Source: Dehalococcoidia bacterium
GTDB taxonomy: Bacteria > Chloroflexota > Dehalococcoidia > SHYB01
Direction: 5' to 3'
Length of the DNA stretch: 64,000 bases
Assembly (NCBI GenBank): GCA_009693015.1
Contig: SHYB01000001.1
Coordinates: 47,885-111,884 of the forward strand
Part shown: one piece after another, positions 4,946 through 40,210 of the stretch
Position numbering within the stretch: the stretch's first letter is position 1
How the letters are laid out: each line of letters starts with the position of its first letter
Position numbers and translations under genes: made by a program
The notes under the pieces: model-generated
What the model was told of the DNA's origin: nothing
The model's input: the letters and a program-made list of their open reading frames with translations, nothing else
Databases searched by the model: none

Positions 4946-5228
4946 TGAGGGCGTATGGTGAGGCGAAATGGGCATGGGGCCGCCTGACGTGGGGAGTGGG
5001 GACGGGGACAGCATAGCAAACCGGAACCAGTCGCGCAAAAAGCAAGCATCTTCCCGCAGCCCACGTTCAGGTATGCCGCGGAACGTCCACCGTCGTGCCC
5101 CTGCGCGCCGCGTGGCGACACGAAAGGCCCGTTCCAGGATTGACCTCTGGGAAGCGGCGCGATATAGTTGAATTTGGCGGGCGCTATATTATGGTAGGCC
5201 CGCCATATAGAAAGGCAGGTACGGAGCA

Positions 5229-6731
5229 TTGTCGAATCCCATATCCCGTGCCCTGGACAGCTTTTGGGCGCTGGTGAGCTTGGGGAAGACGAAGCGCGTA
5301 GTAGAGGAAGCGAATAAAGAAGCGGCTCGAATCGCCAAAGAGGCTGAGGAGAAGCAAGGCACGCTGCTCAAGGATGCCCGGGCTGAGTCCCAGAAGATGA
5401 GAGCAGCGGCGGAGACGGAGTACCGCGAGCGGAGAAGCGAGGTCCAGCGCCAAGAGCGCAGGATCGCGCAAAAAGAGGATAATCTCGATCGCAAGCTGGA
5501 GGGCATAGAGAAGAAGGAGCGCCAGGCGCGTGAGAAAGAGGAGCAGGCCGAGGCGCTGAAGGGGCAGATCGGGGAAAAGATCCGCTTGCAGGTAGTTGAA
5601 CTAGAACGCATCTCCGGATTCTCCAAGGACGAAGCTCTGGCGCAGCTCTTCAAGAAAGTTGAAGACTCGCTGGAGATGGAAGCCGCGAAAAAGATCAACG
5701 AGATCGACCAGCGTATCCGCGAGGAAGCGGATATGAAGGCTCGCAAGGCTATTGCGCTCGCCATCCAACGGCTCACGAGCGATGTGGTGTCGGAGACGAC
5801 GGTTACTGTCGTCCCGATACCGAGCGACGACATGAAGGGACGTCTCATCGGCCGCGAAGGGCGCAACATACGCGCGCTGGAGCAGGCCACCGGCGTTGAC
5901 CTCATCATTGACGATACGCCGGAAGCGGTGACGCTGTCGGGGTATGACCCCATCCGCAGGCAGGTGGCCCGCGTGGCCCTGCAGAAGCTGATGCTGGATG
6001 GGCGCATTCACCCGGCGCGCATCGAGGACATGGTCAAGAAGGCGCAGGAGGAGATCGCCGAAGAGCTCAAGAAGGCCGGGGAGCAGGCGGTCATTGAAAG
6101 CGGCGTGATGGGACTGTCGCGTGAGTTGGTTGAGGTGCTGGGCCGCCTGAAGTATCGCACCAGCTACGGGCAGAACGTGCTGAAGCACAGCGTCGAGGTT
6201 GCCCATCTCGCGGGGATCATGGCCGCGGAGATCGGCGCCAACATTCAGGTGTGCAAGGCCGGGGGCCTGCTGCATGACCTGGGTAAGGCGCTCACCCATG
6301 AAATCGAAGGGAACCATGCCGATATCGGCGGCGAACTGGCGCGCAAATACGGGCTGAAGGCGGAGATCGCCAAGGCGATTGAAGAGCACCACGTGGACGA
6401 TCGCATCAACGTGGAGGCATTCATCGTGGCGGCGGCGGACGCCATTAGCGGCGCACGGCCGGGGGCGCGGCGCGATACGGCGGAACTCTACGTCAAGCGC
6501 TTGCAAGACCTGGAGACGTGTGCCAACAGCTTCCCCGGCGTGGAGAAGTCATTCGCCATCCAGGCGGGGCGCGAGGTGCGCATCCTGGTCAAGCCGCAAG
6601 AGGTGGACGACCTGCGTGCTGCCAAGCTGGCCCATGACGTTGCCGAGAAGATTCACGATACGATGATCTACCCTGGGCAGATCAAGGTGACGGTGATCCG
6701 CGAGACCCGGGCGAGCGGCATGGCGATGTAG
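5229..6731 (+). CDS. rny: ribonuclease Y
   Basis: 500 aa; coiled-coil N-region, KH domain (GRLIGREGRNIRALE), HD domain (HSVEVAHL..HDLGK); TTG start with AAAGGCAGG RBS; no obvious N-terminal TM helix. Confidence 0.85.
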   Translation: MSNPISRALDSFWALVSLGKTKRVVEEANKEAARIAKEAEEKQGTLLKDARAESQKMRAAAETEYRERRSEVQRQERRIAQKEDNLDRKLEGIEKKERQAREKEEQAEALKGQIGEKIRLQVVELERISGFSKDEALAQLFKKVEDSLEMEAAKKINEIDQRIREEADMKARKAIALAIQRLTSDVVSETTVTVVPIPSDDMKGRLIGREGRNIRALEQATGVDLIIDDTPEAVTLSGYDPIRRQVARVALQKLMLDGRIHPARIEDMVKKAQEEIAEELKKAGEQAVIESGVMGLSRELVEVLGRLKYRTSYGQNVLKHSVEVAHLAGIMAAEIGANIQVCKAGGLLHDLGKALTHEIEGNHADIGGELARKYGLKAEIAKAIEEHHVDDRINVEAFIVAAADAISGARPGARRDTAELYVKRLQDLETCANSFPGVEKSFAIQAGREVRILVKPQEVDDLRAAKLAHDVAEKIHDTMIYPGQIKVTVIRETRASGMAM

Positions 6732-6841
6732 CGGTTCATGCAGCGCGAGCATCGGAGCGGGCGGGGGCCATCCCCGCCCGCTCTCTTTTGCGGGTCGCGC
6801 TTCATTTCCTAAGGGTTCAGAGACGGCCTATAATGGTGTGT

Positions 6842-6879
6842 TCATCCCCCTTCCCCTTCCCTGCTGGGAAGGGGGATGA
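6842..6879 (+). promoter_or_regulatory. perfect 13-bp stem-loop in rny-ymdB intergenic region, preceded by TATAAT (6829-6834) and followed by a second 9-bp hairpin (about 6916-6936)
   Basis: tcatcccccttcc / ggaagggggatga with 12-nt loop; gccgcgcat-cga-atgcgcggc downstream. Confidence 0.5.
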
Positions 6880-6967
6880 TTTGTGTCTGGGTACTTGGGC
6901 TTGCACGGCGTTTTGCGGGGGAGGCAGCCGCGCATCGAATGCGCGGCGAAGGAAGGTCGAACGTAGC

Positions 6968-7735
6968 ATGCGTGTGTTGATGATGGGAGATGTGGTAGGC
7001 AAGCCGGGGCGCCGCGCTGTGGAAGCGGTGGTGCCGGGATTGCGGCGCGAGATGGGCATAGACTTCGTCATTGCCAACGGAGAGAACATCGCGGGCGGCC
7101 TAGGCTTGACGCCGGAAGCGGCGCGCGAGATGTTGCAAGCGGGCGTGGACGTGCTGACGGCAGGCAATCACGTCTGGGACAATCGCGCTATCATCCCGTA
7201 TATGGAAGGCGAACTGCCTATTTTGCGGCCGGTGAACTTTCCGCCGGCCGACCCGGGCAGGGGATGGATGATATGCAAAGGCGTGCTGGTCATCAACGTG
7301 ATCGGGCGCGTGTTCATGAGCATGGCCGACGATCCGTTCCGCGCCGTGGACCGGGCCCTGGAGCAGGCGGGCGGCCGCACCAAGGTGATCATCGTGGAGT
7401 GCCATGCGGAGGCGACGTCGGAAAAAGGGGCTATGGGCTGGTATCTCAACGGGAAGGTGAGCGCGGTGCTGGGCACGCACACGCATGTCGGCACGGTGGA
7501 CGCCCGCGTGCTGCCCCAAGGCACGGCGTTTGTCACGGACATCGGGATGGTCGGCCCGCGCGATTCGATTATCGGCAACACGCCGGCGGACGTGCTGCAG
7601 CGATTCCGCACGCAGGTGAAGGTGCGTCTGGGCATCCCCGAGGGGCCGGTGATGTTTCACTCCGTGCTGGTTGATGTGGACGAGACGACGGGAAAGGCGC
7701 GCAGCATTATCCGGATAGATAGAGAGGTGCCCTAG
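6968..7735 (+). CDS. ymdB: YmdB-like metallophosphoesterase (2',3'-cyclic nucleotide phosphodiesterase family, TIGR00282)
   Basis: Start MRVLMMGDVVGKPGR; GNHxWD motif; conserved rny-ymdB synteny. Confidence 0.8.
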   Translation: MRVLMMGDVVGKPGRRAVEAVVPGLRREMGIDFVIANGENIAGGLGLTPEAAREMLQAGVDVLTAGNHVWDNRAIIPYMEGELPILRPVNFPPADPGRGWMICKGVLVINVIGRVFMSMADDPFRAVDRALEQAGGRTKVIIVECHAEATSEKGAMGWYLNGKVSAVLGTHTHVGTVDARVLPQGTAFVTDIGMVGPRDSIIGNTPADVLQRFRTQVKVRLGIPEGPVMFHSVLVDVDETTGKARSIIRIDREVP

Positions 7736-27546: not shown

Positions 27547-29454
27547 TCAACGCGACGCCCGCGCGGTTGAGCGAGCGGCGGCAGCAGGACGCTGGGAGAA
27601 AAATGCTTCGCGCACCCGGCGGGCGATGCCTTCCGCGTCCAGTCCCAGTTGCTGTCTTTGCTGCGCTGCCGTGGCGTGTTCCACAAATGAGTCCGGCATG
27701 CCGATGCGCACGGTATGCACTCCGGTGACCCGTGCATCGCTGAGGGCTTCCAGCACCGCCGAGCCGAAGCCGCCATCGCGCACGTTCTCTTCCACCGTCA
27801 CCAGGCGTCCCGTGGCCTGGGCCGCGCGCACGATGAGCTCGCCGTCCATGGGCTTCACAAAGCGGGCGTTGACCACCATGCAGGAGATGCCGTCGCGCGC
27901 CAGCGCCGCCGCTGCCTCAAGCGCCGGCTGCACCGTCTTGCCGATTGCCACCAGGGTCACATCGCTGCCCTGGCGCACCACTTCCCCCTTGCCGATGGGC
28001 AGCGCGTGCAGCTCCGCATCCAGCGGCACGCCCAGGCCCGATCCCCGCGGGATGCGGATGGCGATGGGGTGCTGGTAGGTGTAGGCGGTGTAGACCAAAT
28101 GCTGCAGTTCGTTTTCGTCCTTGGGGGCGCAGACTACGGCGTTGGGCAGGCAGCGCAGGTAGGAAAGATCGTAGGCGCCGTGGTGCGTTTTGCCGTCTTC
28201 GCCCACGATGCCCGCGCGGTCGGCGATCAGCACCACGGGCAGGTCCTGGAGGCAGACGTCATGCACCACCTGGTCGAAGGCGCGCTGGAGGAAGGTGGAG
28301 TAGATGGAGACGAAGGGCTTGACGCCGTTGCTTGCCATGCCCGCCGCCACGCTGACGGCATGCTGCTCGGCGATGCCCACGTCGAACACGCGGTCGGGAT
28401 GCGCCTTCTTCGCCTCCGCCAGCCCGGTGCCTTCCAGCATCGCCGCGCTGATGCCCACGACCTTGCGGTCTGTGTCCATGAGCCGGATCAGCGTCTGGGC
28501 GAAGACCTTGGAGTAGGTGGGCGCGGTGCTGCCCCCGCTGATGAGCGGCGACGATGGCTGATGATAGCGCACGGGGTCTTCTTCGGCGGGCCCGTAGCCG
28601 CGGCCCTTGTGCGTGATGACGTGCACCAGCGGGGTCTTGCCCGAAAAGTTCTTCGCCTGGCGGAAGGCCTCTTCCAGCGCCTTGAGGTTATGCCCGTCCA
28701 CTGGGCCGATGTACTGCAAGCCCATCTCCGTCCACAGCGTCGTGGGCAGAGCGAACCCCTCCAGCCCGTGCTCGATGCGCCGCGCGAAGTTGTACACCAG
28801 CTCCCCCGTAGGGACCTTTTTCGCAAGGCGCTTCGTCCGCTTCACCATCGCCAGATACTCGGGGTGGGTGATGATCCGCTGGCGCCAGTGCGTGAGGAAG
28901 CCGATGTTCTCCGAGATGGACATGCCGTTATCGTTGAGCACCAGGATGAGATTGTCCGGGCTGAGGTGGGAGATGTTGTTGAGCGCCTCATAGCTGGAGC
29001 CGGAGGTCATGGCGCCGTCGCCGACGATGGCCACGCTCCACGCCGGGCTGCCGCGCAGCTTCTCCGCCTGGGCGATGCCCAGGGCGATGGAGAGTCCCGT
29101 GCCGGCGTGGCCGGCGCACAGCGTATCGTGGGGGCTTTCCGATGGTTCGCCGAACCCGGAGATGCCCTCCACCAGGCGGATGTCCTTGAACTCTTCCCGG
29201 CGTCCCGTGACGATCTTGTGGGTGTAGAGCTGATTGGTGGTGTCCCACACCAGCTTGTCCTTGGGGCTGTCAAACGACTGGTGCAGCGCCAGCGTCAGCT
29301 CCACCACGCCCAGGTTGGAGGCGAGGTGTCCGCCGCGTTGCGTGATGACGCTGATGATGAGATCGCGAACTTCCTGGGCCACCTGCTTGAGAGCCTTACG
29401 ATCCAGACTCTTGAGGTCGGCAGGCGTGTGAATGGAGTCGAGCATGCGTCCCAT
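27547..29454 (-). CDS. dxs: 1-deoxy-D-xylulose-5-phosphate synthase
   Basis: 635 aa; TPP-binding GDG..N motif, transketolase-like domains, N-terminus MGRMLDSIHTPADLK. Confidence 0.9.
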   Translation of the reverse strand: MGRMLDSIHTPADLKSLDRKALKQVAQEVRDLIISVITQRGGHLASNLGVVELTLALHQSFDSPKDKLVWDTTNQLYTHKIVTGRREEFKDIRLVEGISGFGEPSESPHDTLCAGHAGTGLSIALGIAQAEKLRGSPAWSVAIVGDGAMTSGSSYEALNNISHLSPDNLILVLNDNGMSISENIGFLTHWRQRIITHPEYLAMVKRTKRLAKKVPTGELVYNFARRIEHGLEGFALPTTLWTEMGLQYIGPVDGHNLKALEEAFRQAKNFSGKTPLVHVITHKGRGYGPAEEDPVRYHQPSSPLISGGSTAPTYSKVFAQTLIRLMDTDRKVVGISAAMLEGTGLAEAKKAHPDRVFDVGIAEQHAVSVAAGMASNGVKPFVSIYSTFLQRAFDQVVHDVCLQDLPVVLIADRAGIVGEDGKTHHGAYDLSYLRCLPNAVVCAPKDENELQHLVYTAYTYQHPIAIRIPRGSGLGVPLDAELHALPIGKGEVVRQGSDVTLVAIGKTVQPALEAAAALARDGISCMVVNARFVKPMDGELIVRAAQATGRLVTVEENVRDGGFGSAVLEALSDARVTGVHTVRIGMPDSFVEHATAAQQRQQLGLDAEGIARRVREAFFSQRPAAAARSTARASR

Positions 29455-29532
29455 CGTGTGACAACCCTCTCACTTGCCGTCTGCGGCTCATTTGCCGCTT
29501 GTGCCGCGTCACCAGTGCGAAGGTGAACGCCC

Positions 29533-29589
29533 CGATACCTCAGTATCCGATGCTCACGAAACGTAGCACACCTGTTGGGAGGGTGTCAA
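29533..29589 (-). promoter_or_regulatory. candidate sigma70-type promoter (TTGACA-17/18-TACGTT on minus strand) with a 16-bp near-palindrome (GGATAC-TGAG-GTATCG) downstream, upstream of dxs
   Basis: Read on minus strand; spacing appropriate; unverified. Confidence 0.3.
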
Positions 29590-29614
29590 ACTGGGGAGGG
29601 CGATCCCGCGGCGG

Positions 29615-32681: not shown

Positions 32682-33953
32682 ATGACACACAGCGCTCCCA
32701 TCGCTCAGAACGACCAGGCGACCTTCGCCCGGCTGCGCCGCGGCATCATCACCGTTGCGCTTGCCGGCAGCGTCGCCCTTCCCGGCGTGGTGCTGCGAGT
32801 GACGGGGTTTTCCCATGACCCCGTGGTGGAAGCGGCGTTGTTCGGCCTGGCGATTCTGGGCGCGGCGTTTCTGCTGGGCGCAGCCGGTGAGCTTGCGGAG
32901 CTGGAAATCTCCGCATCGCTGGCGCTGGCGCTGGTGGCGCTCGTCGCCATTTTGCCGGAGTACGCGGTGGACCTGGTGTTCGCCTGGAAGGCGGCGGAGC
33001 AGCCGGAGTACGCCCAGTACGCGGCAGCGAACATGACCGGCGGCAACCGCCTGCTCATCGGCGTGGGCTGGTCGCTGGTGGTGCTGCTCTTCTTCTGGAA
33101 AGCACGCAAGGCGGTGCAGATCGAGAAGGGGCAGGCGATTGAGCTGACGTTCCTTCTCGCAGCCACGGCGTGGGCCTTCACCATTTTTCTGCGCACGCTG
33201 GTGTGGGACGGTTCCCTCAACATCGTGGACATTGTGGTGCTGGTGTCAATGTACTTGGGGTATCTCTATGTGAGCGCCAAGGGAGAGGCCAAGACGCAGC
33301 ACACGGTGGCGGGACCGATGGCAGGCTTCGCCTTCATCGAGAAGTGGCCACGGCGCTTTGTCATCATTGGGCTGTTCGCTGTCTCCGCGCTGGTGATCCT
33401 GGCGGTGGCGGAGCCGTTTGCGGAAAGCCTGATCCACGCCGGCGCGGACCTGGGCGTGGACGAGTTCGTTCTGGTGCAGTGGGTGGCGCCGCTGGCGTCC
33501 GAGGCGCCGGAGATCGGCGTGGCGGCGATGTTCGCCTGGCGCGGGATGGGTTCCATGGCGATGGGCGTGCTGATCTCATCGAAAGTGAACCAATGGACGC
33601 TGCTGGTGGGCACGCTGCCGCTGGTGTATAGCATCAGCTCCGGCGAGTTGAAGGGGCTGCCGCTGGACGATCGCCAGACGGAGGAGTTCCTGCTCACCGC
33701 GGCGCAATCGCTGTTCGCGATACTGCTGCTCACCTCGTTTCGCATCTCATGGCGCGCCGGGTTGGCGCTGCTGGTGCTCTTTCTCACGCAGCTGGCGTTC
33801 ACCTCCACGCACGCTCGCCTGATCTACTCGCTGGTGTACCTGGGCCTTGCCGTGGCGATCCTGGTGTTCGATAAGAACCGTCGCCAGGGAACATGGGGCC
33901 TGGTCAGCGCGGGGGTGCGCAGTCTGTGGCCCAGCGGGCTGCGGCGCGGCTAA
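32682..33953 (+). CDS. cation/Ca2+ exchanger family membrane protein (CaCA)
   Basis: 423 aa, 10-11 TM; two alpha-repeat motifs (GELAELEIS; ASEAPEIGVAA). Confidence 0.7.
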   Translation: MTHSAPIAQNDQATFARLRRGIITVALAGSVALPGVVLRVTGFSHDPVVEAALFGLAILGAAFLLGAAGELAELEISASLALALVALVAILPEYAVDLVFAWKAAEQPEYAQYAAANMTGGNRLLIGVGWSLVVLLFFWKARKAVQIEKGQAIELTFLLAATAWAFTIFLRTLVWDGSLNIVDIVVLVSMYLGYLYVSAKGEAKTQHTVAGPMAGFAFIEKWPRRFVIIGLFAVSALVILAVAEPFAESLIHAGADLGVDEFVLVQWVAPLASEAPEIGVAAMFAWRGMGSMAMGVLISSKVNQWTLLVGTLPLVYSISSGELKGLPLDDRQTEEFLLTAAQSLFAILLLTSFRISWRAGLALLVLFLTQLAFTSTHARLIYSLVYLGLAVAILVFDKNRRQGTWGLVSAGVRSLWPSGLRRG

Positions 33954-35746
33954 AACTCGCAGACGGCGGGGTCGGGGCAGCCGCCGGCGTACTCCGGCGA
34001 GGCGACGACGAAGTCGCCGTGGTCGGTGGCGTCGGGGAGGTCGCTGCCGCGATAGAGCACTTGCTCGCCCTTGCTGCCGTTGCGGAACACGGTGATGCCC
34101 TTGCATTGGAGGCGGTAGGCCAAGAGCAGAGTATCGCGCACGTCAGCGACGGTAGCCGATGCGGGCAGGTTGATCGTCTTGGAGACGGCGTTGTCGCAGT
34201 GGCGCTGGAAAGCAGCTTGCATTTTGACGTGCCAGGCGGGGGCGATATCGAAGTCGGTGACGAAGATGCGGCGCACGTCTTCCGGCACCTGAGGCATATC
34301 GTGGATGGAGCCGGTGTGGGCCACCTGGGACATGAGGCCGGGTGAGGAGAAGCCGCGCTCCCCGGCGACACGCTGGAAGGCGGGATTGCTCTCCATGAGG
34401 CGGGAGCCTTCCATGACGCTGCGGATGAAGGAGAGGGCGAAGAGCGGCTCGATGCCGCTGGAGCAGCCGGCGATGATGCTGATGGTGCCGGTGGGGGCGA
34501 TGCTGGTGACGGTGGCGTTGCGTAATGGCGGTGCCCCGGGGACATCATGGATGCTGCCGCGCCAGTTGGGGAAGGGGCCGCGCTCGCGGGCGAGGGCGGC
34601 GGAGGCGGCGCGGCCTTCCTCTTGCACCGCGCCCATGATTTCGCTGGCGAGGGCGATAGCGCGGTCGCTATCGTAGGGGACGCCGAGGGCGATGAGGGCA
34701 TCGGCGAAGCCCATGACGCCCAGGCCGACCTTGCGGTTGGCGCGGGTGATGGCGGCGATGGCGTCCACGGGATAGTGGTTGACCTCGATGACGTCATCGA
34801 GGAAGCGCACGCCGAGGCGGACGGCGCGGCGCAGCGCGGCGTAGTCGAATGCGCCGTCGCGGGCCATCGTTGCCAGGTTCACCGAGCCGAGGTTGCAGCT
34901 TTCATAGGGCAGCAACGGCAGCTCGCCGCAGGGGTTGGTGGACTCCAGATCTCCGAGGCTGGGCGTTGGATTGCCGCGATTGATTGCGTCCACAAACACT
35001 AGGCCGGGATCGCCGCTCTTCCACGCGCTGGTGGCGATAAGATCGAAGACATGGCGGGCGCTGAGGCGGCGCACCTCCGCGCCGGTGCGAGGGTTGATGA
35101 GCGCGTAGCCATTGCTATGCTCCACGGCGTCCATGAAGGCGTCGGTGACGGCGACGGAGATGTTGAAGTTGGACAGCACGCCTGCGGCGCCCTTCGACTC
35201 GATGAAATCGAGGATATCGGGATGGTCTGCGCGGAGGATGCCCATGTTGGCGCCGCGGCGCTTGCCGCCCTGCTTGATGACGTCGGTTGCGGTATCGAAG
35301 ACGCGCATGAAGGAGACAGGGCCGGAGGCCACGCCGTGGGTGGAGCGGACCACGTCGCCCTTGGGCCGGAGGCGGGAGAAGTTGAAGCCGGTGCCGCCGC
35401 CGGACTGGTGGATGAGGGCCATGACGCGGACGCTCTCGAAGATTTCGGCGATGGAGTCGGGCACGGGGATGACGAAGCAGGCGGAGAGCTGGCCCAGCGG
35501 CGCGCCGGCGTTCATCAGCGTGGGGGAGTTGGGGAGGAACTGCCGCGAGGTCATCGCGGCGAGAAACTCGCGCTCGCGGGCGGCGGGGTCGCCGCCGAAG
35601 CGCGCTTCGGCGGCGGCGATGGCATGGGCCACGCGCTGGAACATCTGCAGCGGTGTTTCTATGAGCGCGCCGGCGTCGTCGCGCAGCAGGTAACGGCGCT
35701 CCAGCACCTGGAGGGCGTTGACGCTGAGGCGACGGTCATCGGGCAT
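33950..35746 (-). CDS. nrdJ: class II (adenosylcobalamin-dependent) ribonucleotide reductase
   Basis: NPCGELPL active site, LNAGAP.. loop; start MPDDRRLSV. Confidence 0.85.
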   Translation of the reverse strand: MPDDRRLSVNALQVLERRYLLRDDAGALIETPLQMFQRVAHAIAAAEARFGGDPAAREREFLAAMTSRQFLPNSPTLMNAGAPLGQLSACFVIPVPDSIAEIFESVRVMALIHQSGGGTGFNFSRLRPKGDVVRSTHGVASGPVSFMRVFDTATDVIKQGGKRRGANMGILRADHPDILDFIESKGAAGVLSNFNISVAVTDAFMDAVEHSNGYALINPRTGAEVRRLSARHVFDLIATSAWKSGDPGLVFVDAINRGNPTPSLGDLESTNPCGELPLLPYESCNLGSVNLATMARDGAFDYAALRRAVRLGVRFLDDVIEVNHYPVDAIAAITRANRKVGLGVMGFADALIALGVPYDSDRAIALASEIMGAVQEEGRAASAALARERGPFPNWRGSIHDVPGAPPLRNATVTSIAPTGTISIIAGCSSGIEPLFALSFIRSVMEGSRLMESNPAFQRVAGERGFSSPGLMSQVAHTGSIHDMPQVPEDVRRIFVTDFDIAPAWHVKMQAAFQRHCDNAVSKTINLPASATVADVRDTLLLAYRLQCKGITVFRNGSKGEQVLYRGSDLPDATDHGDFVVASPEYAGGCPDPAVCEF

Positions 35747-36073
35747 GCGAGCGGTCCTTTTCTCTAACGCGAACAGGCGGAGGAGAAATGCCATTGTAGC
35801 GCAGGGGAGATGCAGAGCCTCTCATGGAGGACGTATGCTCTGTCGATGGATTACGACAGGCGGGCGAGGCGTGTCAAGGGACGTTGTGAGCCGTTGTATA
35901 GTGGGTTGATATGAGCCCAAAAAGACGAAGCACAACAAACAAGGCTACTGGCAAAACCGGGCCGGAGTTGTTGCGGTCCGGCACCATGACGTCCAAGGAC
36001 CTGCTGGCTCAGGTGCGACGGATGGGACTGCGAACCGGCCGCGACTCCGCTGCGATGGTGCGCGAGGACCGAG

Positions 36074-36499
36074 ATGCTCGGTAAGGTAGCTGGCGATCTC
36101 ATTAACAGACTGCCACAAATTTTGCGGAAGAAAATACTATGGTGGATCGTGATAGGAGGGGCTAGTTCTTTGGTTAGGCTGATCTGGGGCCCCGGCGTTT
36201 TTCTGGCCCTTCTTATGATAATCAGCCTTACTGGCTGGCTCCTTCATCGACTGGGCGTCCGTGAAGGAGGATACCTCAGCCGTTTGCTTGGTAATGTCTG
36301 GGATTATTTTAGAGGAGCGATATTGTTTGCGTTCCTGCCAGCAGTCTGGATTGCGATTAGGGAACTGCTGGGTGGTGATCGGCTTGGTGGTGTGATCCAG
36401 CTCCTCGTGTTGGGCCTAGTTGCGGCAGTAGTGTTCCAGCAGTTCAGTCGCTTGCCAAGGTCTTGGGACGCTCTGAATGGGGGCGATGGCCGCCGATAG
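36074..36499 (+). CDS. hypothetical small membrane protein in a locally low-GC island
   Basis: 141 aa, 3-4 TM; local GC clearly below flanks; sits in an otherwise ORF-poor 900-bp region. Confidence 0.3.
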   Translation: MLGKVAGDLINRLPQILRKKILWWIVIGGASSLVRLIWGPGVFLALLMIISLTGWLLHRLGVREGGYLSRLLGNVWDYFRGAILFAFLPAVWIAIRELLGGDRLGGVIQLLVLGLVAAVVFQQFSRLPRSWDALNGGDGRR

Positions 36500-36641
36500 A
36501 CCGCGTACGTGTATGTATTACCCGCGACGCGCTTGAGGTTTTCCCGCGTTTGCATCATGCCGCTGGCGTCTCTTCCCGTATACTACGTAGCGCATCATTC
36601 CACATCCTTCGTGCGCCCCGCGCACGGCACACGAGGCCCGC

Positions 36642-38054
36642 ATGCCCCCCAAATCAGTCCTTACGCCCCAGTCGGTTGACTTTCCTCAGTGGTACCAGGA
36701 CGTGCTCAACAAGGCGGAGCTGGCCGACAACGGCCCCGTGCGCGGCACGATGGTCATTCGCCCCTACGGCTACGCGCTGTGGGAGCGCATCCAGGCGGAG
36801 GTTGACGCGCGCATCAAGCAGGCGGGGGGGCAGAACGTGTACCTGCCGCTGTTCATCCCGGAGAGCTACTTGCGCAAGGAAGCGGAGCACGTCAAGGGCT
36901 TTTCCCCTGAACTGGCGGTGGTGACGCACGCGGGCGGCAAGCAGTTGGAAGAGCCCGTGGTGGTGCGTCCCACCAGCGAAACGCTGTTCGGCGAGGTGAT
37001 GGCGAAGTGGGTGCAGAGCTATCGCGACCTGCCGCTGCTGCTCAACCAGTGGGCCAACGTGGTGCGATGGGAGTTGCGCCCGCGCATGTTTTTGCGCACC
37101 ACGGAGTTCTTGTGGCAGGAGGGGCACACGGCGCACGCCACGGAGCAGGACGCGGCGTCGTACGCGCTCAGAATCCTGCATGAGGTCTACCGCGATTTCT
37201 TCACGCAGGTGCTGGCGATCCCCGTGCTGGTGGGTCGCAAGACCAAAAAGGAGCGTTTCGCCGGGGCGACGAACACCATGACGTGCGAGGGGATGATGCG
37301 CGACGGCAAGGCGCTGCAGATGGCGACGAGCCATGAACTGGGCCAGACGTTCGCCAAGGCGTTCAATATCAACTACACCAGCGAGTCAGGGCAGGTGCAG
37401 ATCGCGTGGACGACGTCGTGGGGCAGCTCCACGCGGATGGTCGGCGCGCTGATCATGGCCCAGGGCGACGACAACGGCCTGCGTGTGCCGCCGCAGCTTG
37501 CCCCTACCCAGGCGGTGGTGCTGCTGGTGCGCGATGAGCAGGGCGCAGGCGAAAAAGCGCGGGCGATCGCTGATGCGCTGGCGGCGAACGGGGTGCGCGT
37601 GCGGCTGGACGCGGACGTGGCCAGCAGCTTCGGGCGCCGCGCCACGAAGTGGGAGTTGCAAGGCATCCCGGTGCGCATTGAGGTCGGCCCGCGCGACGTG
37701 GCGGCGGGGACCGTCACCGTGGCGCGGCGCGATACGGGGGTGAAGATGCCGGTGAGCTTGGACGGCGCGGCTCAGGCCGTTCCCGCGCTGCTCAAGGAGA
37801 TCCAGGAGGCGATGCTGGCGCAATCAAGCGCATGGCTGGCATCGCACATCGCCGATGCGGCGACGCTGGAGGAGGCGAAGGAGGCGGCGCAAACGGGGTT
37901 TGCCCGCCTGCCCTACGCCGCGCTGGGCGAGAACGGTGAGGCAGAGCTGGGGCTGCAGGCGCTGAGCGTGCGGTGCTTGCAGCGGGAGGATGGCTCGGTG
38001 CCCGCGAGCGAGTCGGAGCCGGGGATCGTGGCGATCATTGGGCGGGCGTATTAG
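36642..38054 (+). CDS. proS: prolyl-tRNA synthetase, short archaeal/eukaryotic-type
   Basis: 470 aa class II aaRS motifs 1-3, ProRS anticodon-binding and C-terminal Zn-type domain; no editing insertion. Confidence 0.85.
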   Translation: MPPKSVLTPQSVDFPQWYQDVLNKAELADNGPVRGTMVIRPYGYALWERIQAEVDARIKQAGGQNVYLPLFIPESYLRKEAEHVKGFSPELAVVTHAGGKQLEEPVVVRPTSETLFGEVMAKWVQSYRDLPLLLNQWANVVRWELRPRMFLRTTEFLWQEGHTAHATEQDAASYALRILHEVYRDFFTQVLAIPVLVGRKTKKERFAGATNTMTCEGMMRDGKALQMATSHELGQTFAKAFNINYTSESGQVQIAWTTSWGSSTRMVGALIMAQGDDNGLRVPPQLAPTQAVVLLVRDEQGAGEKARAIADALAANGVRVRLDADVASSFGRRATKWELQGIPVRIEVGPRDVAAGTVTVARRDTGVKMPVSLDGAAQAVPALLKEIQEAMLAQSSAWLASHIADAATLEEAKEAAQTGFARLPYAALGENGEAELGLQALSVRCLQREDGSVPASESEPGIVAIIGRAY

Positions 38055-38758: not shown

Positions 38759-38986
38759 CTAGTTCATGTTGCAGGCGCTTGGCGTGGCGCAGCAGGCGCC
38801 TGCGCCACAGGAGGCGTCGGCGGGCATGGCGTCGCCGCCGGAAGTGACGGTAGCGAAGACGGAGAGCAGCTTCTTGGCGCCGGCGTGGCCTTGCGGACAC
38901 GTGGCGGTGGCCGTGGCGGTACTCACGGAGCGCAACTCCTCGAAGCGTGTGGTGCAACTGGGACAGTAGTATTCGTAGAGCGGCAT
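38759..38986 (-). CDS. FmdB-family zinc-ribbon putative regulatory protein
   Basis: MPLYEYYCPSC..CPQGH; GGAGG RBS; longer track ORF rejected. Confidence 0.6.
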   Translation of the reverse strand: MPLYEYYCPSCTTRFEELRSVSTATATATCPQGHAGAKKLLSVFATVTSGGDAMPADASCGAGACCATPSACNMN

Positions 38987-39118
38987 GGCGAACCTCCAAC
39001 TACAGGGATTGTACCCAGGTTGGGGAAGGATGGCAAGGCGGCTACGCCAGCATTGACACCCTGGAGGGGCAGGCATACTATCGCTGGCGGGCGCACGCCG
39101 CACCAAGGAGCAATCGTC

Positions 39119-40210
39119 ATGAAGTACGCCTGCATATCGTCGGATTCGCATGTGATCGAGCCGCCAACGCTATGGAAAGACTACTGCCCGCTGGCGTTCC
39201 GCGACCGCGCGCCGAAGCTGGAGCGCCTGCCGGAGAGCGATAGGTATGTGTGCGAGGGGCGGGAGATGATGCGCGTGGGGGCGATCAGCGCCGCGGGGAA
39301 GAAGAAGGAGACGGTGACGCACAACGGCTTTTGGGAGCGCGACGTGCCCAAGGGAGCGTATGATCCGCGCGCCCGCGTGGAGGCGATGCACGTGGACGGC
39401 GTGGATGCTGAGGTGGTGTACCCCACGATTTCGCTGCGGGTGTATGGGTTCAACGACACACCATTGCAACGGGCGTGCTTTGACGCCTACAACGCCTGGG
39501 CGTCGGACTTCTGCAAGGGCGCGCCGCAGCAGCTGCGGGCCATCGGCCTGGTGAACATGGACGACATCGAAGAGGGCGTGGCGCAGGTGCAGCGCGTGGC
39601 GAAGCTGGGGCTGGCCGGCGCGATGATCTCCATCAAGCCCAGCCAGGGGAACGAGTACAGCCAGAAGCAGTACGACCCGTTCTGGGCGGCGGCGCAGGAT
39701 ACGGGATTGCCCGTGAGCCTGCACATCGGCACGGACAGGGCGGCGAGCGCGGCGACGTTCGGGAGCGTGGGCGAGCTGGTGCTGGTGGCTGCGCCGGTGC
39801 AGGTGGCGATCGCGGACATCGCCTTCGGCGGGGTGTTCCAGCGCTTCCCCAAGCTGCAGGTGATCTCCGCGGAGAACGACGTGGGCTGGGTGGCGCACTA
39901 CCTGGAGCACCTCGATTACATTTTTTACAAGCGCCGCGGCATCAACAAGTGGGAACTGAAGGGCGAGAAGCCCGCCAGCGCCTGGGTGCGGGAGCAAGCC
40001 TACTTCACCTTCACCGACGACCATTGCTGGGTGCCGGGGCGCAGCGTTACCGGCGTGGACCGCTTCATGTGGGCGTCCGATTATCCCCACAACATGAGCT
40101 CCTGGCCCAACTCCCAGCCGCTGATCAAGGGGATCTTCGACGGGGTGCCGGAGGCCGAGCGGCACGCGGTGATCTCGGGGAACGCGGCGAAGCTGTACAG
40201 GTTCAATTAG
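39119..40210 (+). CDS. amidohydrolase-2 family metal-dependent hydrolase (ACMSD-like), paralog 1
   Basis: Start MKYACISSDSHVIEPP; HxH..H..D TIM-barrel metal ligands. Confidence 0.75.
   Translation: MKYACISSDSHVIEPPTLWKDYCPLAFRDRAPKLERLPESDRYVCEGREMMRVGAISAAGKKKETVTHNGFWERDVPKGAYDPRARVEAMHVDGVDAEVVYPTISLRVYGFNDTPLQRACFDAYNAWASDFCKGAPQQLRAIGLVNMDDIEEGVAQVQRVAKLGLAGAMISIKPSQGNEYSQKQYDPFWAAAQDTGLPVSLHIGTDRAASAATFGSVGELVLVAAPVQVAIADIAFGGVFQRFPKLQVISAENDVGWVAHYLEHLDYIFYKRRGINKWELKGEKPASAWVREQAYFTFTDDHCWVPGRSVTGVDRFMWASDYPHNMSSWPNSQPLIKGIFDGVPEAERHAVISGNAAKLYRFN

Follow-up and report, generated by a model that had tools for sequence, protein, structure and literature searches.

The targets and outputs of most bacterial ubiquitination-like pathways are not known (PMC11601596; PMC11601603), and the targets of the Type II Bil and Bub systems are likewise not known (PMC11601596; bioRxiv 10.1101/2023.09.26.559546; PMC11601603). 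The product of the fifth Bub gene, bubE (DUF6527), has been suggested to associate with the membrane (PMC11601596). Because the targets and outputs of these pathways are not known, a conserved membrane partner would be a concrete and testable lead. Here, we describe an open reading frame (ORF) of 141 amino acids (aa), located at positions 36074–36499 of the plus strand in a 64-kb stretch of DNA (the window) from a metagenome-assembled genome (MAG) of a Dehalococcoidia bacterium (contig SHYB01000001.1). The ORF lies in an 895-bp gap (35747–36641) between the divergent genes nrdJ, which starts at 35746 on the minus strand, and proS, which starts at 36642 on the plus strand. Our results suggest that a real, horizontally acquired orphan gene for a membrane protein lies in this gap, and the gene neighborhoods of its relatives point to an accessory role in defence. 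We consider the probability of this reading to be roughly 0.7.

Evidence for a protein-coding gene between nrdJ and proS

In the initial annotation of this DNA, the ~900 bp between nrdJ and proS was described as ORF-poor and without a convincing conserved gene, although a 141-aa ORF preceded by a GAGGA-type ribosome-binding site (RBS) was noted at 36074–36499. The extent of the gap was essentially right, and its borders match two GenBank proteins. The ORF was also correctly delimited; read from the sequence, a GAGGA Shine–Dalgarno motif at 36064–36068 of the plus strand ends 5 nt before its ATG. The judgment that no conserved gene is present does not hold. The homology search that had been recommended, performed as a word-indexed search of 5.8 billion proteins, recovered an identical copy of the 141-aa protein and three homologues with 71%, 59%, and 49% amino acid identity. 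When 1.84 billion cluster representatives were searched exhaustively with a profile, the family proved to be small, with only 20 representatives at E ≤ 0.001, all of 83–178 aa.

The pattern of substitution is that of a protein. The ratio of nonsynonymous to synonymous substitution rates (dN/dS) was 0.36 in the comparison with the homologue at locus L001 (71% identity; dS = 0.52) and ~0.2 in that with the homologue at locus L004 (59% identity), the pairwise values being 0.36, 0.20, and 0.18. When the pairwise distances were split by hand on a three-taxon tree with L004 as the outgroup, the ratio (ω) was ~0.35 on the branch leading to the window protein and likewise on that leading to L001, values that are rough because dS to this outgroup is near saturation. 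All 49 of the 49 invariant columns in the four-sequence alignment are retained in the window protein. Taken together, the sequence comparisons indicate that the 141-aa ORF genuinely encodes a protein and is intact and under purifying selection. Because it is conserved and under such selection, the gap cannot be called ORF-poor; the bulk of it consists of the ORF and the regions upstream of nrdJ (164 bp) and proS (142 bp).

Predicted fold and family of the 141-aa protein

The AlphaFold2 model of the protein, computed with the family alignment as input, was all-helical and confident, with a mean predicted local distance difference test score (pLDDT) of 82.4. Its helices span residues 15–38, 40–59, 65–86, 88–99, and 103–136, and hydropathy analysis placed membrane-spanning segments at residues 30–62, 81–101, and 101–128, in agreement with the model. 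The three or four transmembrane (TM) segments proposed in the initial annotation therefore correspond to three or four hydrophobic helices, which in the model are best described as four helices in two hairpins. From our own alignments, we defined the family as proteins of ~130–180 aa in which four hydrophobic helices occur together with the motifs WR..(K)..W, IWG(P)G, LLGxVWDYFRG, and F..LPRSW, which appear in fuller form in the alignments as WR..K..W, IWGPG, LLGxVWDYFRGAILFA, and QF..LPRSW. The window protein has these features and was recovered together with its relatives by the profile search.

Neither the window protein nor any of the 23 family members gave a consistent match in Pfam, NCBIfam, PADLOC, or PHROGs, and no match to the 141-aa protein was found in the PDB, either with a sequence profile or with Foldseek run on the AlphaFold2 model (best E-value, ~4). 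On the evidence of the model and alignments, the protein is thus predicted to be an inner-membrane protein of a very rare family for which no curated model exists.

Because the positive-inside rule can be applied to both the model and the alignment, an N-in/C-in topology may be proposed, in which two tight helical hairpins would be joined by very short outside turns (GPG and GGD(R)). In this arrangement, the best-conserved motifs, LLGxVWDYFRGAILFA and QF..LPRSW, would face the cytoplasm; in most members, an Arg-rich tail comes after QF..LPRSW. The window protein stops directly after LPRSWDALNGGDGRR (end GGDGRR), whereas its homologues run on for 10–40 basic residues.

Evidence for a foreign origin

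The composition of the ORF is markedly atypical for its surroundings. Its G+C content (GC) is 0.531 and its GC at third codon positions (GC3) is 0.54, compared with a GC3 of 0.88 in nrdJ and proS and of 0.73–0.92 in the long host ORFs of the window. It is the lowest-GC 426-bp stretch in the 64 kb, falling within the lowest 0.04% of the stretches compared (mean, 0.662; standard deviation, 0.032), so that the outlier test proposed in the initial annotation upheld the low GC reported there. The change is abrupt: at ~36080, 80 bp suffice for GC to fall from 0.70 to 0.45. A blastn comparison with L001, which has a GC of 57%, showed 79.1% identity (E = 2e-101) between positions 36078–36493 of the plus strand and L001 positions 6011–6426, with no match outside the ORF, and this segment represents the detectable extent of the acquired DNA. 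By contrast, among the matches listed from 185,579 species-representative genomes, no relative of nrdJ exceeded 63% amino acid identity, and the best one listed was non-syntenic.

The usual traces of a mobile element were not seen at the borders. There is no tRNA in the window, the repeats flanking the ORF are only short and at chance level, and no integrase-like neighbor was noted within the 32–40 kb of the window. Searches of 2.9 million viral contigs, of 50,697 phage records, and of a plasmid set likewise gave no relative of the protein. The locus combines the signs of a horizontal islet (atypical composition, a patchy distribution, and closest relatives in unrelated genomic backgrounds) with the lack of border mobility signatures (tRNA, integrase, and repeats). 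The RBS and start codon lie within DNA of host-like composition, suggesting that local sequence took up the body of the gene and that the window copy may borrow its RBS and start codon from that sequence. These observations support the idea of a horizontally acquired small gene, one of three explanations offered in the initial annotation. As judged from composition and homology, the gene is of horizontal origin from a lower-GC donor, with a body at ~36078–36493 that shows no amelioration.

A small foreign gene for a multi-helix membrane protein could also be left over from the lysis cassette of a prophage, with a product resembling a holin. A highly basic C-terminal tail, as in holins, is present in most family members, and one of them gave a marginal match to the Pfam family Phage_holin_T (E = 0.14), which is the only Pfam trace of a holin that was found. 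Nevertheless, we regard this origin as extremely unlikely, given that the viral and phage collections above and PHROGs contained no relative, that no phage genes or lysis cassette occurred beside any member, and that the window copy lacks the tail.

Gene neighborhoods of the relatives

The relatives of the 141-aa protein were found in several kinds of locus, among which those encoding ubiquitin-like (Ubl) proteins and E1 enzymes stand out. At L088/L089 (42–44% identity), the gene order was a helix–turn–helix protein and M78 peptidase (CapH/CapP-like), a Multi_ubiq Ubl, Prok-E2_E, Prok-JAB, a ThiF E1, the homologue, which overlaps the E1 gene by 4 nt, and a 101-aa protein. At L090/L091 (43%), the homologue followed a Ubl, a 125-aa ORF without a family match, a JAB protein, and a 523-aa E1 (Pfam BilD_N and ThiF; PADLOC BilD, E = 1.6e-12). 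At L094 (38%) and L095 (50%), the upstream ORFs are partial, 62% identical to each other, and resemble the C-terminus of Type II BilD (PADLOC BilD, E = 0.005; BLASTP E = 5e-6 to an E. aridi BilD fragment; bioRxiv 10.1101/2023.09.26.559546). Adjacent Ubl, E2, JAB, and E1 genes, the hallmark of Bil and Bub operons, were thus found at L088–L091 and in part at L094/L095.

Other relatives adjoin different defence systems. L001 encodes a complete type III cyclic oligonucleotide-based anti-phage signaling system (CBASS; cyclase, HORMA, TRIP13-like AAA, and TIR-SAVED), followed by a 318-aa gene of unknown kind whose overlap with the homologue is 17 nt. Directly upstream of the homologue at L004, the C-terminus of this 318-aa partner is also conserved (76%). 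At L096/L097 (22–23%), the homologue follows a DUF4917 protein that corresponds to the PADLOC candidate system PDC-S21. Tight coupling to an upstream ORF is common in the family, with overlaps of 1–17 nt at L001, L005, L089, L095, and L100. In a neighbor-joining tree, the window protein fell inside a clade whose informative contexts are those of the E1- and CBASS-linked members; the member at L099 belongs to this clade too.

The presence of an E1 gene immediately upstream in at least three operon types would be far above chance for a random small gene, judging from a small sample of short metagenomic contigs. Because the closest relatives end E1/Ubl operons or adjoin CBASS or PDC-S21, a defence-accessory role may be proposed for the family. 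In the closest relatives, the gene would close Bil-like Ubl–E2–JAB–E1 operons, following the E1 and often being coupled to it in translation, or would lie in CBASS or PDC-S21 loci, and its product would serve as a membrane-embedded accessory of such operons, whether as an anchor, as a target, or as an effector that perturbs the membrane.

Several further features of these loci were observed. At L004 (217–429), no more than the final 71 residues of the 318-aa partner can be recognized, and the gene caller reported a 103-aa ORF in another frame, so that the partner may be truncated or frameshifted there. The two L001 proteins that flank the homologue (318 aa at 5061–6017 and 176 aa at 6568–7098) had no match in Pfam, PADLOC, or PHROGs; in both, an Rx4H motif (RNQIMH and RCGLLH) reminiscent of HEPN domains can be seen by eye. 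A basic protein of ~101–111 aa is encoded after the membrane-protein gene at L089 (4762–5067), L088 (3335–3640), and L094 (883–1218); the one at L094 had a weak match to Tox-REase-9 (E = 3e-4), and the one at L088/L089 had no match. The DUF4917/PDC-S21 gene (E = 7e-102; L096 6908–7909 and L097 413–1414) stands directly before the distant family member, and the two may form a two-gene unit.

The orphan state of the window copy

In the window, the gene stands by itself. When all the operon proteins of L088, L089, and L090 were compared by tblastn with the gap and the full 64 kb, no Bil, CBASS, or other partner gene was recovered; the only matches were the membrane protein itself and one weak M78-peptidase-like match. 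The latter, at 29426–29596 on the minus strand and ~6.5 kb from the gap, shows 31% identity to the CapP-like M78/IrrE peptidase of L088 in a 58-aa alignment (E = 4e-5) and may be an ordinary ImmA/IrrE-domain gene. No adjacent Ubl, E2, JAB, or E1 gene occurs in the window, and no SMODS CD-NTase cyclase, the gene expected in the operon of a CBASS effector, was found there.

The orphan state and the missing tail mean that the window copy is a stand-alone derivative or else a gene-body fragment that was captured recently; it would accordingly work alone or represent a piece of such a locus. We favor the stand-alone derivative because the frame is intact, the RBS is good, the invariant residues are retained, and ω is ~0.35 on its branch. 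The fragment is kept alive as an option by the missing partner, the missing tail, and the lack of a recognizable promoter.

Pursued to its end, the second option makes the ORF a decaying remnant, i.e., a fragment of a Bil- or CBASS-type locus, or of the pair formed by the 318-aa gene and the membrane-protein gene, which was brought in by illegitimate recombination and is non-functional, its frame simply not having been broken yet. The DNA homology ends exactly at the borders of the ORF, and the partner gene of L001 and L004 is absent, as expected for a fragment. The lost Arg-rich tail, the lack of a promoter-like site, and the fact that the GenBank pipeline did not call the gene all point the same way, as does the related orphan at L099, whose N-terminal motif lies upstream of any start codon. 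These points have to be set against 141 intact codons behind a good RBS, the retention of all family-invariant residues, and a dN/dS of 0.36, with an ω on the window branch similar to that on the L001 branch, although the dS of the window branch is 0.3. On balance, we regard decay as rather unlikely.

Several observations weigh against our reading of a functional, acquired gene with a defence-accessory role. On the side of function, the promoter/terminator consensus scan gave 0 promoter-like sites upstream of the gene, the Arg/Lys-rich tail that follows LPRSW in most members is absent from the window protein (it is also missing in some distant members), and the branch-specific ω values are rough for the reason given above. 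On the side of defence, the window contains none of the partner genes, and the 141-aa protein itself matches no PADLOC or PHROG model. The defence context consists of gene neighborhoods in a handful of mostly short metagenomic contigs, and the Bil and Bub literature consulted describes no TM gene in these operons (PMC11601596; bioRxiv 10.1101/2023.09.26.559546; PMC11601603). Some relatives also occur in other surroundings: the member at L099 (47%), of the same clade as the window copy, stands alone among housekeeping genes, and the more distant members at L093 (29%; after a GHMP-kinase-like gene) and L098 (21–22%; between a GGDEF/HD-GYP gene and a CAP-domain gene) have housekeeping contexts, while that at L100 (26%) follows an unrelated 244-aa protein. 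At L099 (3512–3976; P0007), the N-terminal motif VPARWRRKAL lies in frame upstream of the called GTG without a preceding start codon, so that the copy may be degraded or may use an unusual start.

A more specific proposal can be derived from the E1-linked loci, namely that the 141-aa protein is an unrecognized integral-membrane component of Bil-type and neighboring defence systems (an anchor, a conjugation target, or a membrane-perturbing effector) that is encoded directly after the E1 and coupled to it in translation, and that the Dehalococcoidia copy is a captured, stand-alone, tail-less derivative maintained by selection in a housekeeping locus. We put this forward tentatively, as a possibility that is more likely to prove wrong than right.

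Remainder of the gap and bordering genes

Both borders of the gap are secure. On the left, nrdJ (33950–35746, minus strand) encodes a 598-aa adenosylcobalamin-dependent ribonucleotide reductase (Pfam Ribonuc_red_lgC and Ribonuc_red_lgN; NCBIfam TIGR02504 NrdJ_Z, 700 bits), and on the right, proS (36642–38054, plus strand) encodes a 470-aa proline–tRNA ligase (NCBIfam TIGR00408 proS_fam_I, 496 bits). Their products are identical to the Dehalococcoidia MAG proteins MSQ24736.1 and MSQ24737.1 in GenBank, and the starts that border the gap match both. Because these accessions (MSQ24736 and MSQ24737) are consecutive and the sole source of a protein identical to the 141-aa ORF is a Logan read-assembly, the public annotation presumably calls nothing in the gap. 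The 141-aa gene thus appears to be missing from the deposited GenBank annotation of this MAG, and the gap would exist because a foreign gene sits between nrdJ and proS and was overlooked.

The nearly identical contig L006 (99.8% identity to the window) shows two differences over its first 1144 bases. One is T in the window and C in L006 at 36283, a third codon position of the 141-aa ORF. The other, A in the window and T in L006 at 35889, falls within an NrdR-like half-site, tATAGTGg.

The gap contains two plus-strand ORFs, the 141-aa ORF and a 57-aa ORF at 35911–36084, which overlap by 11 nt. The 57-aa ORF was absent from the initial annotation and has no support as a gene; its 3′ part supplies the RBS and start codon of the 141-aa gene. 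It had no homologue at E ≤ 0.1 among the 5.8 billion proteins and no match in Pfam, NCBIfam, PADLOC, or PHROGs. As a separate candidate, a C-terminal remnant of an E1 or of the 318-aa partner of L001 was considered and rejected, since the 57-aa ORF resembles no upstream partner in the family and nothing in the rest of the window or in the loci. The two ORFs might instead form a translationally coupled module, either toxin–antitoxin-like or a small regulator with a membrane protein, that was acquired or assembled together. Their 11-nt overlap recalls the coupling to an upstream ORF that is typical of the family (1–17 nt), and the 3′ two-thirds of the 57-aa ORF look coding, with GC values of 0.67, 0.55, and 0.81 at the first, second, and third codon positions of 35950–36075. 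This pattern is host-like, however, and its mirror image suits an antisense frame equally well. In addition, no Shine–Dalgarno motif was seen by eye before the ATG, the 5′ part is A-rich and of low complexity, the ORF is uncalled on L006, and both homologues and similarity to upstream partners are lacking. We therefore consider a two-gene module unlikely, and the 57-aa ORF is probably not a conserved gene.

The initial annotation had offered two further explanations for the gap, a long structured 5′ leader of nrdJ and an undetected non-coding RNA (ncRNA). If either were right, a riboswitch, an NrdR operator, or a small RNA would occupy the region and the 141-codon ORF would be incidental, an idea to which the unusual length of the gap and the single NrdR-like half-site tATAGTGg at 35894–35901, upstream of nrdJ, lend some weight. 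B12 riboswitches normally repress B12-independent reductases, and for that reason one is not expected on nrdJ. NrdR operators consist of two 16-bp palindromes (consensus acaCwAtATaTwGtgt) that are ~31–32 bp apart and overlap the nrd promoter. The Rfam search gave 0 matches at the gathering score across the whole window, including for the cobalamin riboswitch RF00174, and at E ≤ 10 it gave three chance-level matches to unrelated families within 35600–36800, none of which is credible. In 35741–35975, the best 16-mers scored 10/16 at 35889 and 35891, which are two registers of one half-site (35889–35906), with no second box; no nrdR-like gene was found in the window. The initial statements that no B12 box and no paired NrdR boxes, but one half-site, were present were thus borne out.

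Folding energies were equally unremarkable, with z-scores of −1.25 for the 164-nt region upstream of nrdJ, +0.98 for the region upstream of proS, and −1.72 for the third non-coding stretch, none of them significant, and the promoter/terminator consensus scan gave 0 sites, with no sigma-70 consensus in the nrdJ upstream region and no terminator. By eye, TTGACA (35877–35872) and TACAAT hexamers can be seen on the minus strand upstream of nrdJ. Since most of the gap is taken by an opposite-strand gene that is conserved as a protein (dN/dS < 1), we consider a long nrdJ leader or an ncRNA highly unlikely. The remaining ~160 bp and ~140 bp are ordinary upstream regions without a riboswitch, an NrdR operator, or structured RNA: the nrdJ upstream region (35747–35910, minus strand) comprises a promoter and a short leader, and in the proS upstream region (36500–36641, plus strand) no T-box or other leader RNA was detected.

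Beyond proS, a 130-aa ORF at 38759–39151 on the minus strand contains a zinc-ribbon-like CxxC...CxxxH segment (MPLYEYYCPSCTTRFE...) that, by eye, resembles FmdB-type putative regulators.

Implications

For the Dehalococcoidia genome, the immediate consequence is a correction of the annotation, and the long spacer between nrdJ and proS needs no exotic RNA to explain it. The wider interest lies in a rare four-helix family, without a curated model, that recurs as the terminal gene of Bil-like operons and in other defence loci. If the proposed Bil-type role is true, the 141-aa family would point to where and how the outputs of Type II Bil- and Bub-like pathways act. This lead comes from a few metagenomic contigs and not from the window itself.

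Comparison with known systems

With cobalamin riboswitches, NrdR operators, and T-box leaders, the locus shares only its position in a long upstream region of nrdJ and proS; it differs from them in that no covariance model matched, NrdR boxes did not occur as a pair, and no stable structure was found. Phage holins, like the family, are small proteins with several TM helices, and the basic tail at the C-terminus of most family members is also shared with them. The family differs from holins in its lack of a phage context and of PHROG, viral, or phage matches, and in its predicted architecture, in which four helices form two tight hairpins and conserved motifs face the cytoplasm.

The similarity to anti-phage TM effectors, such as those of CBASS, is closer. 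Like them, the family comprises small multi-helix proteins encoded by terminal genes of defence operons, occurs in defence islands, and moves horizontally. In contrast to CBASS-type effectors, it has no PADLOC or PDB match in sequence or fold and no nucleotide-sensing domain, and it occurs mainly with E1/Ubl operons rather than with cyclases, the window copy having no operon. Furthermore, the type III CBASS of L001 already has its own TIR-SAVED effector, and the homologue there is separated from the CBASS genes by the 318-aa gene.

The closest resemblance is to BilABCD (Bil of Types I and II) and Bub. None of the Bil or Bub genes is present in the window, whereas the relatives lie directly after the E1 gene in Ubl/E2/JAB/E1 operons with CapH/CapP-like regulators. 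In this position, the relatives' gene is comparable to bubE, in that both are extra genes of their operons; unlike BubE, which is a β-sandwich serine protease, the members of the family described here are predicted to be integral four-helix membrane proteins.

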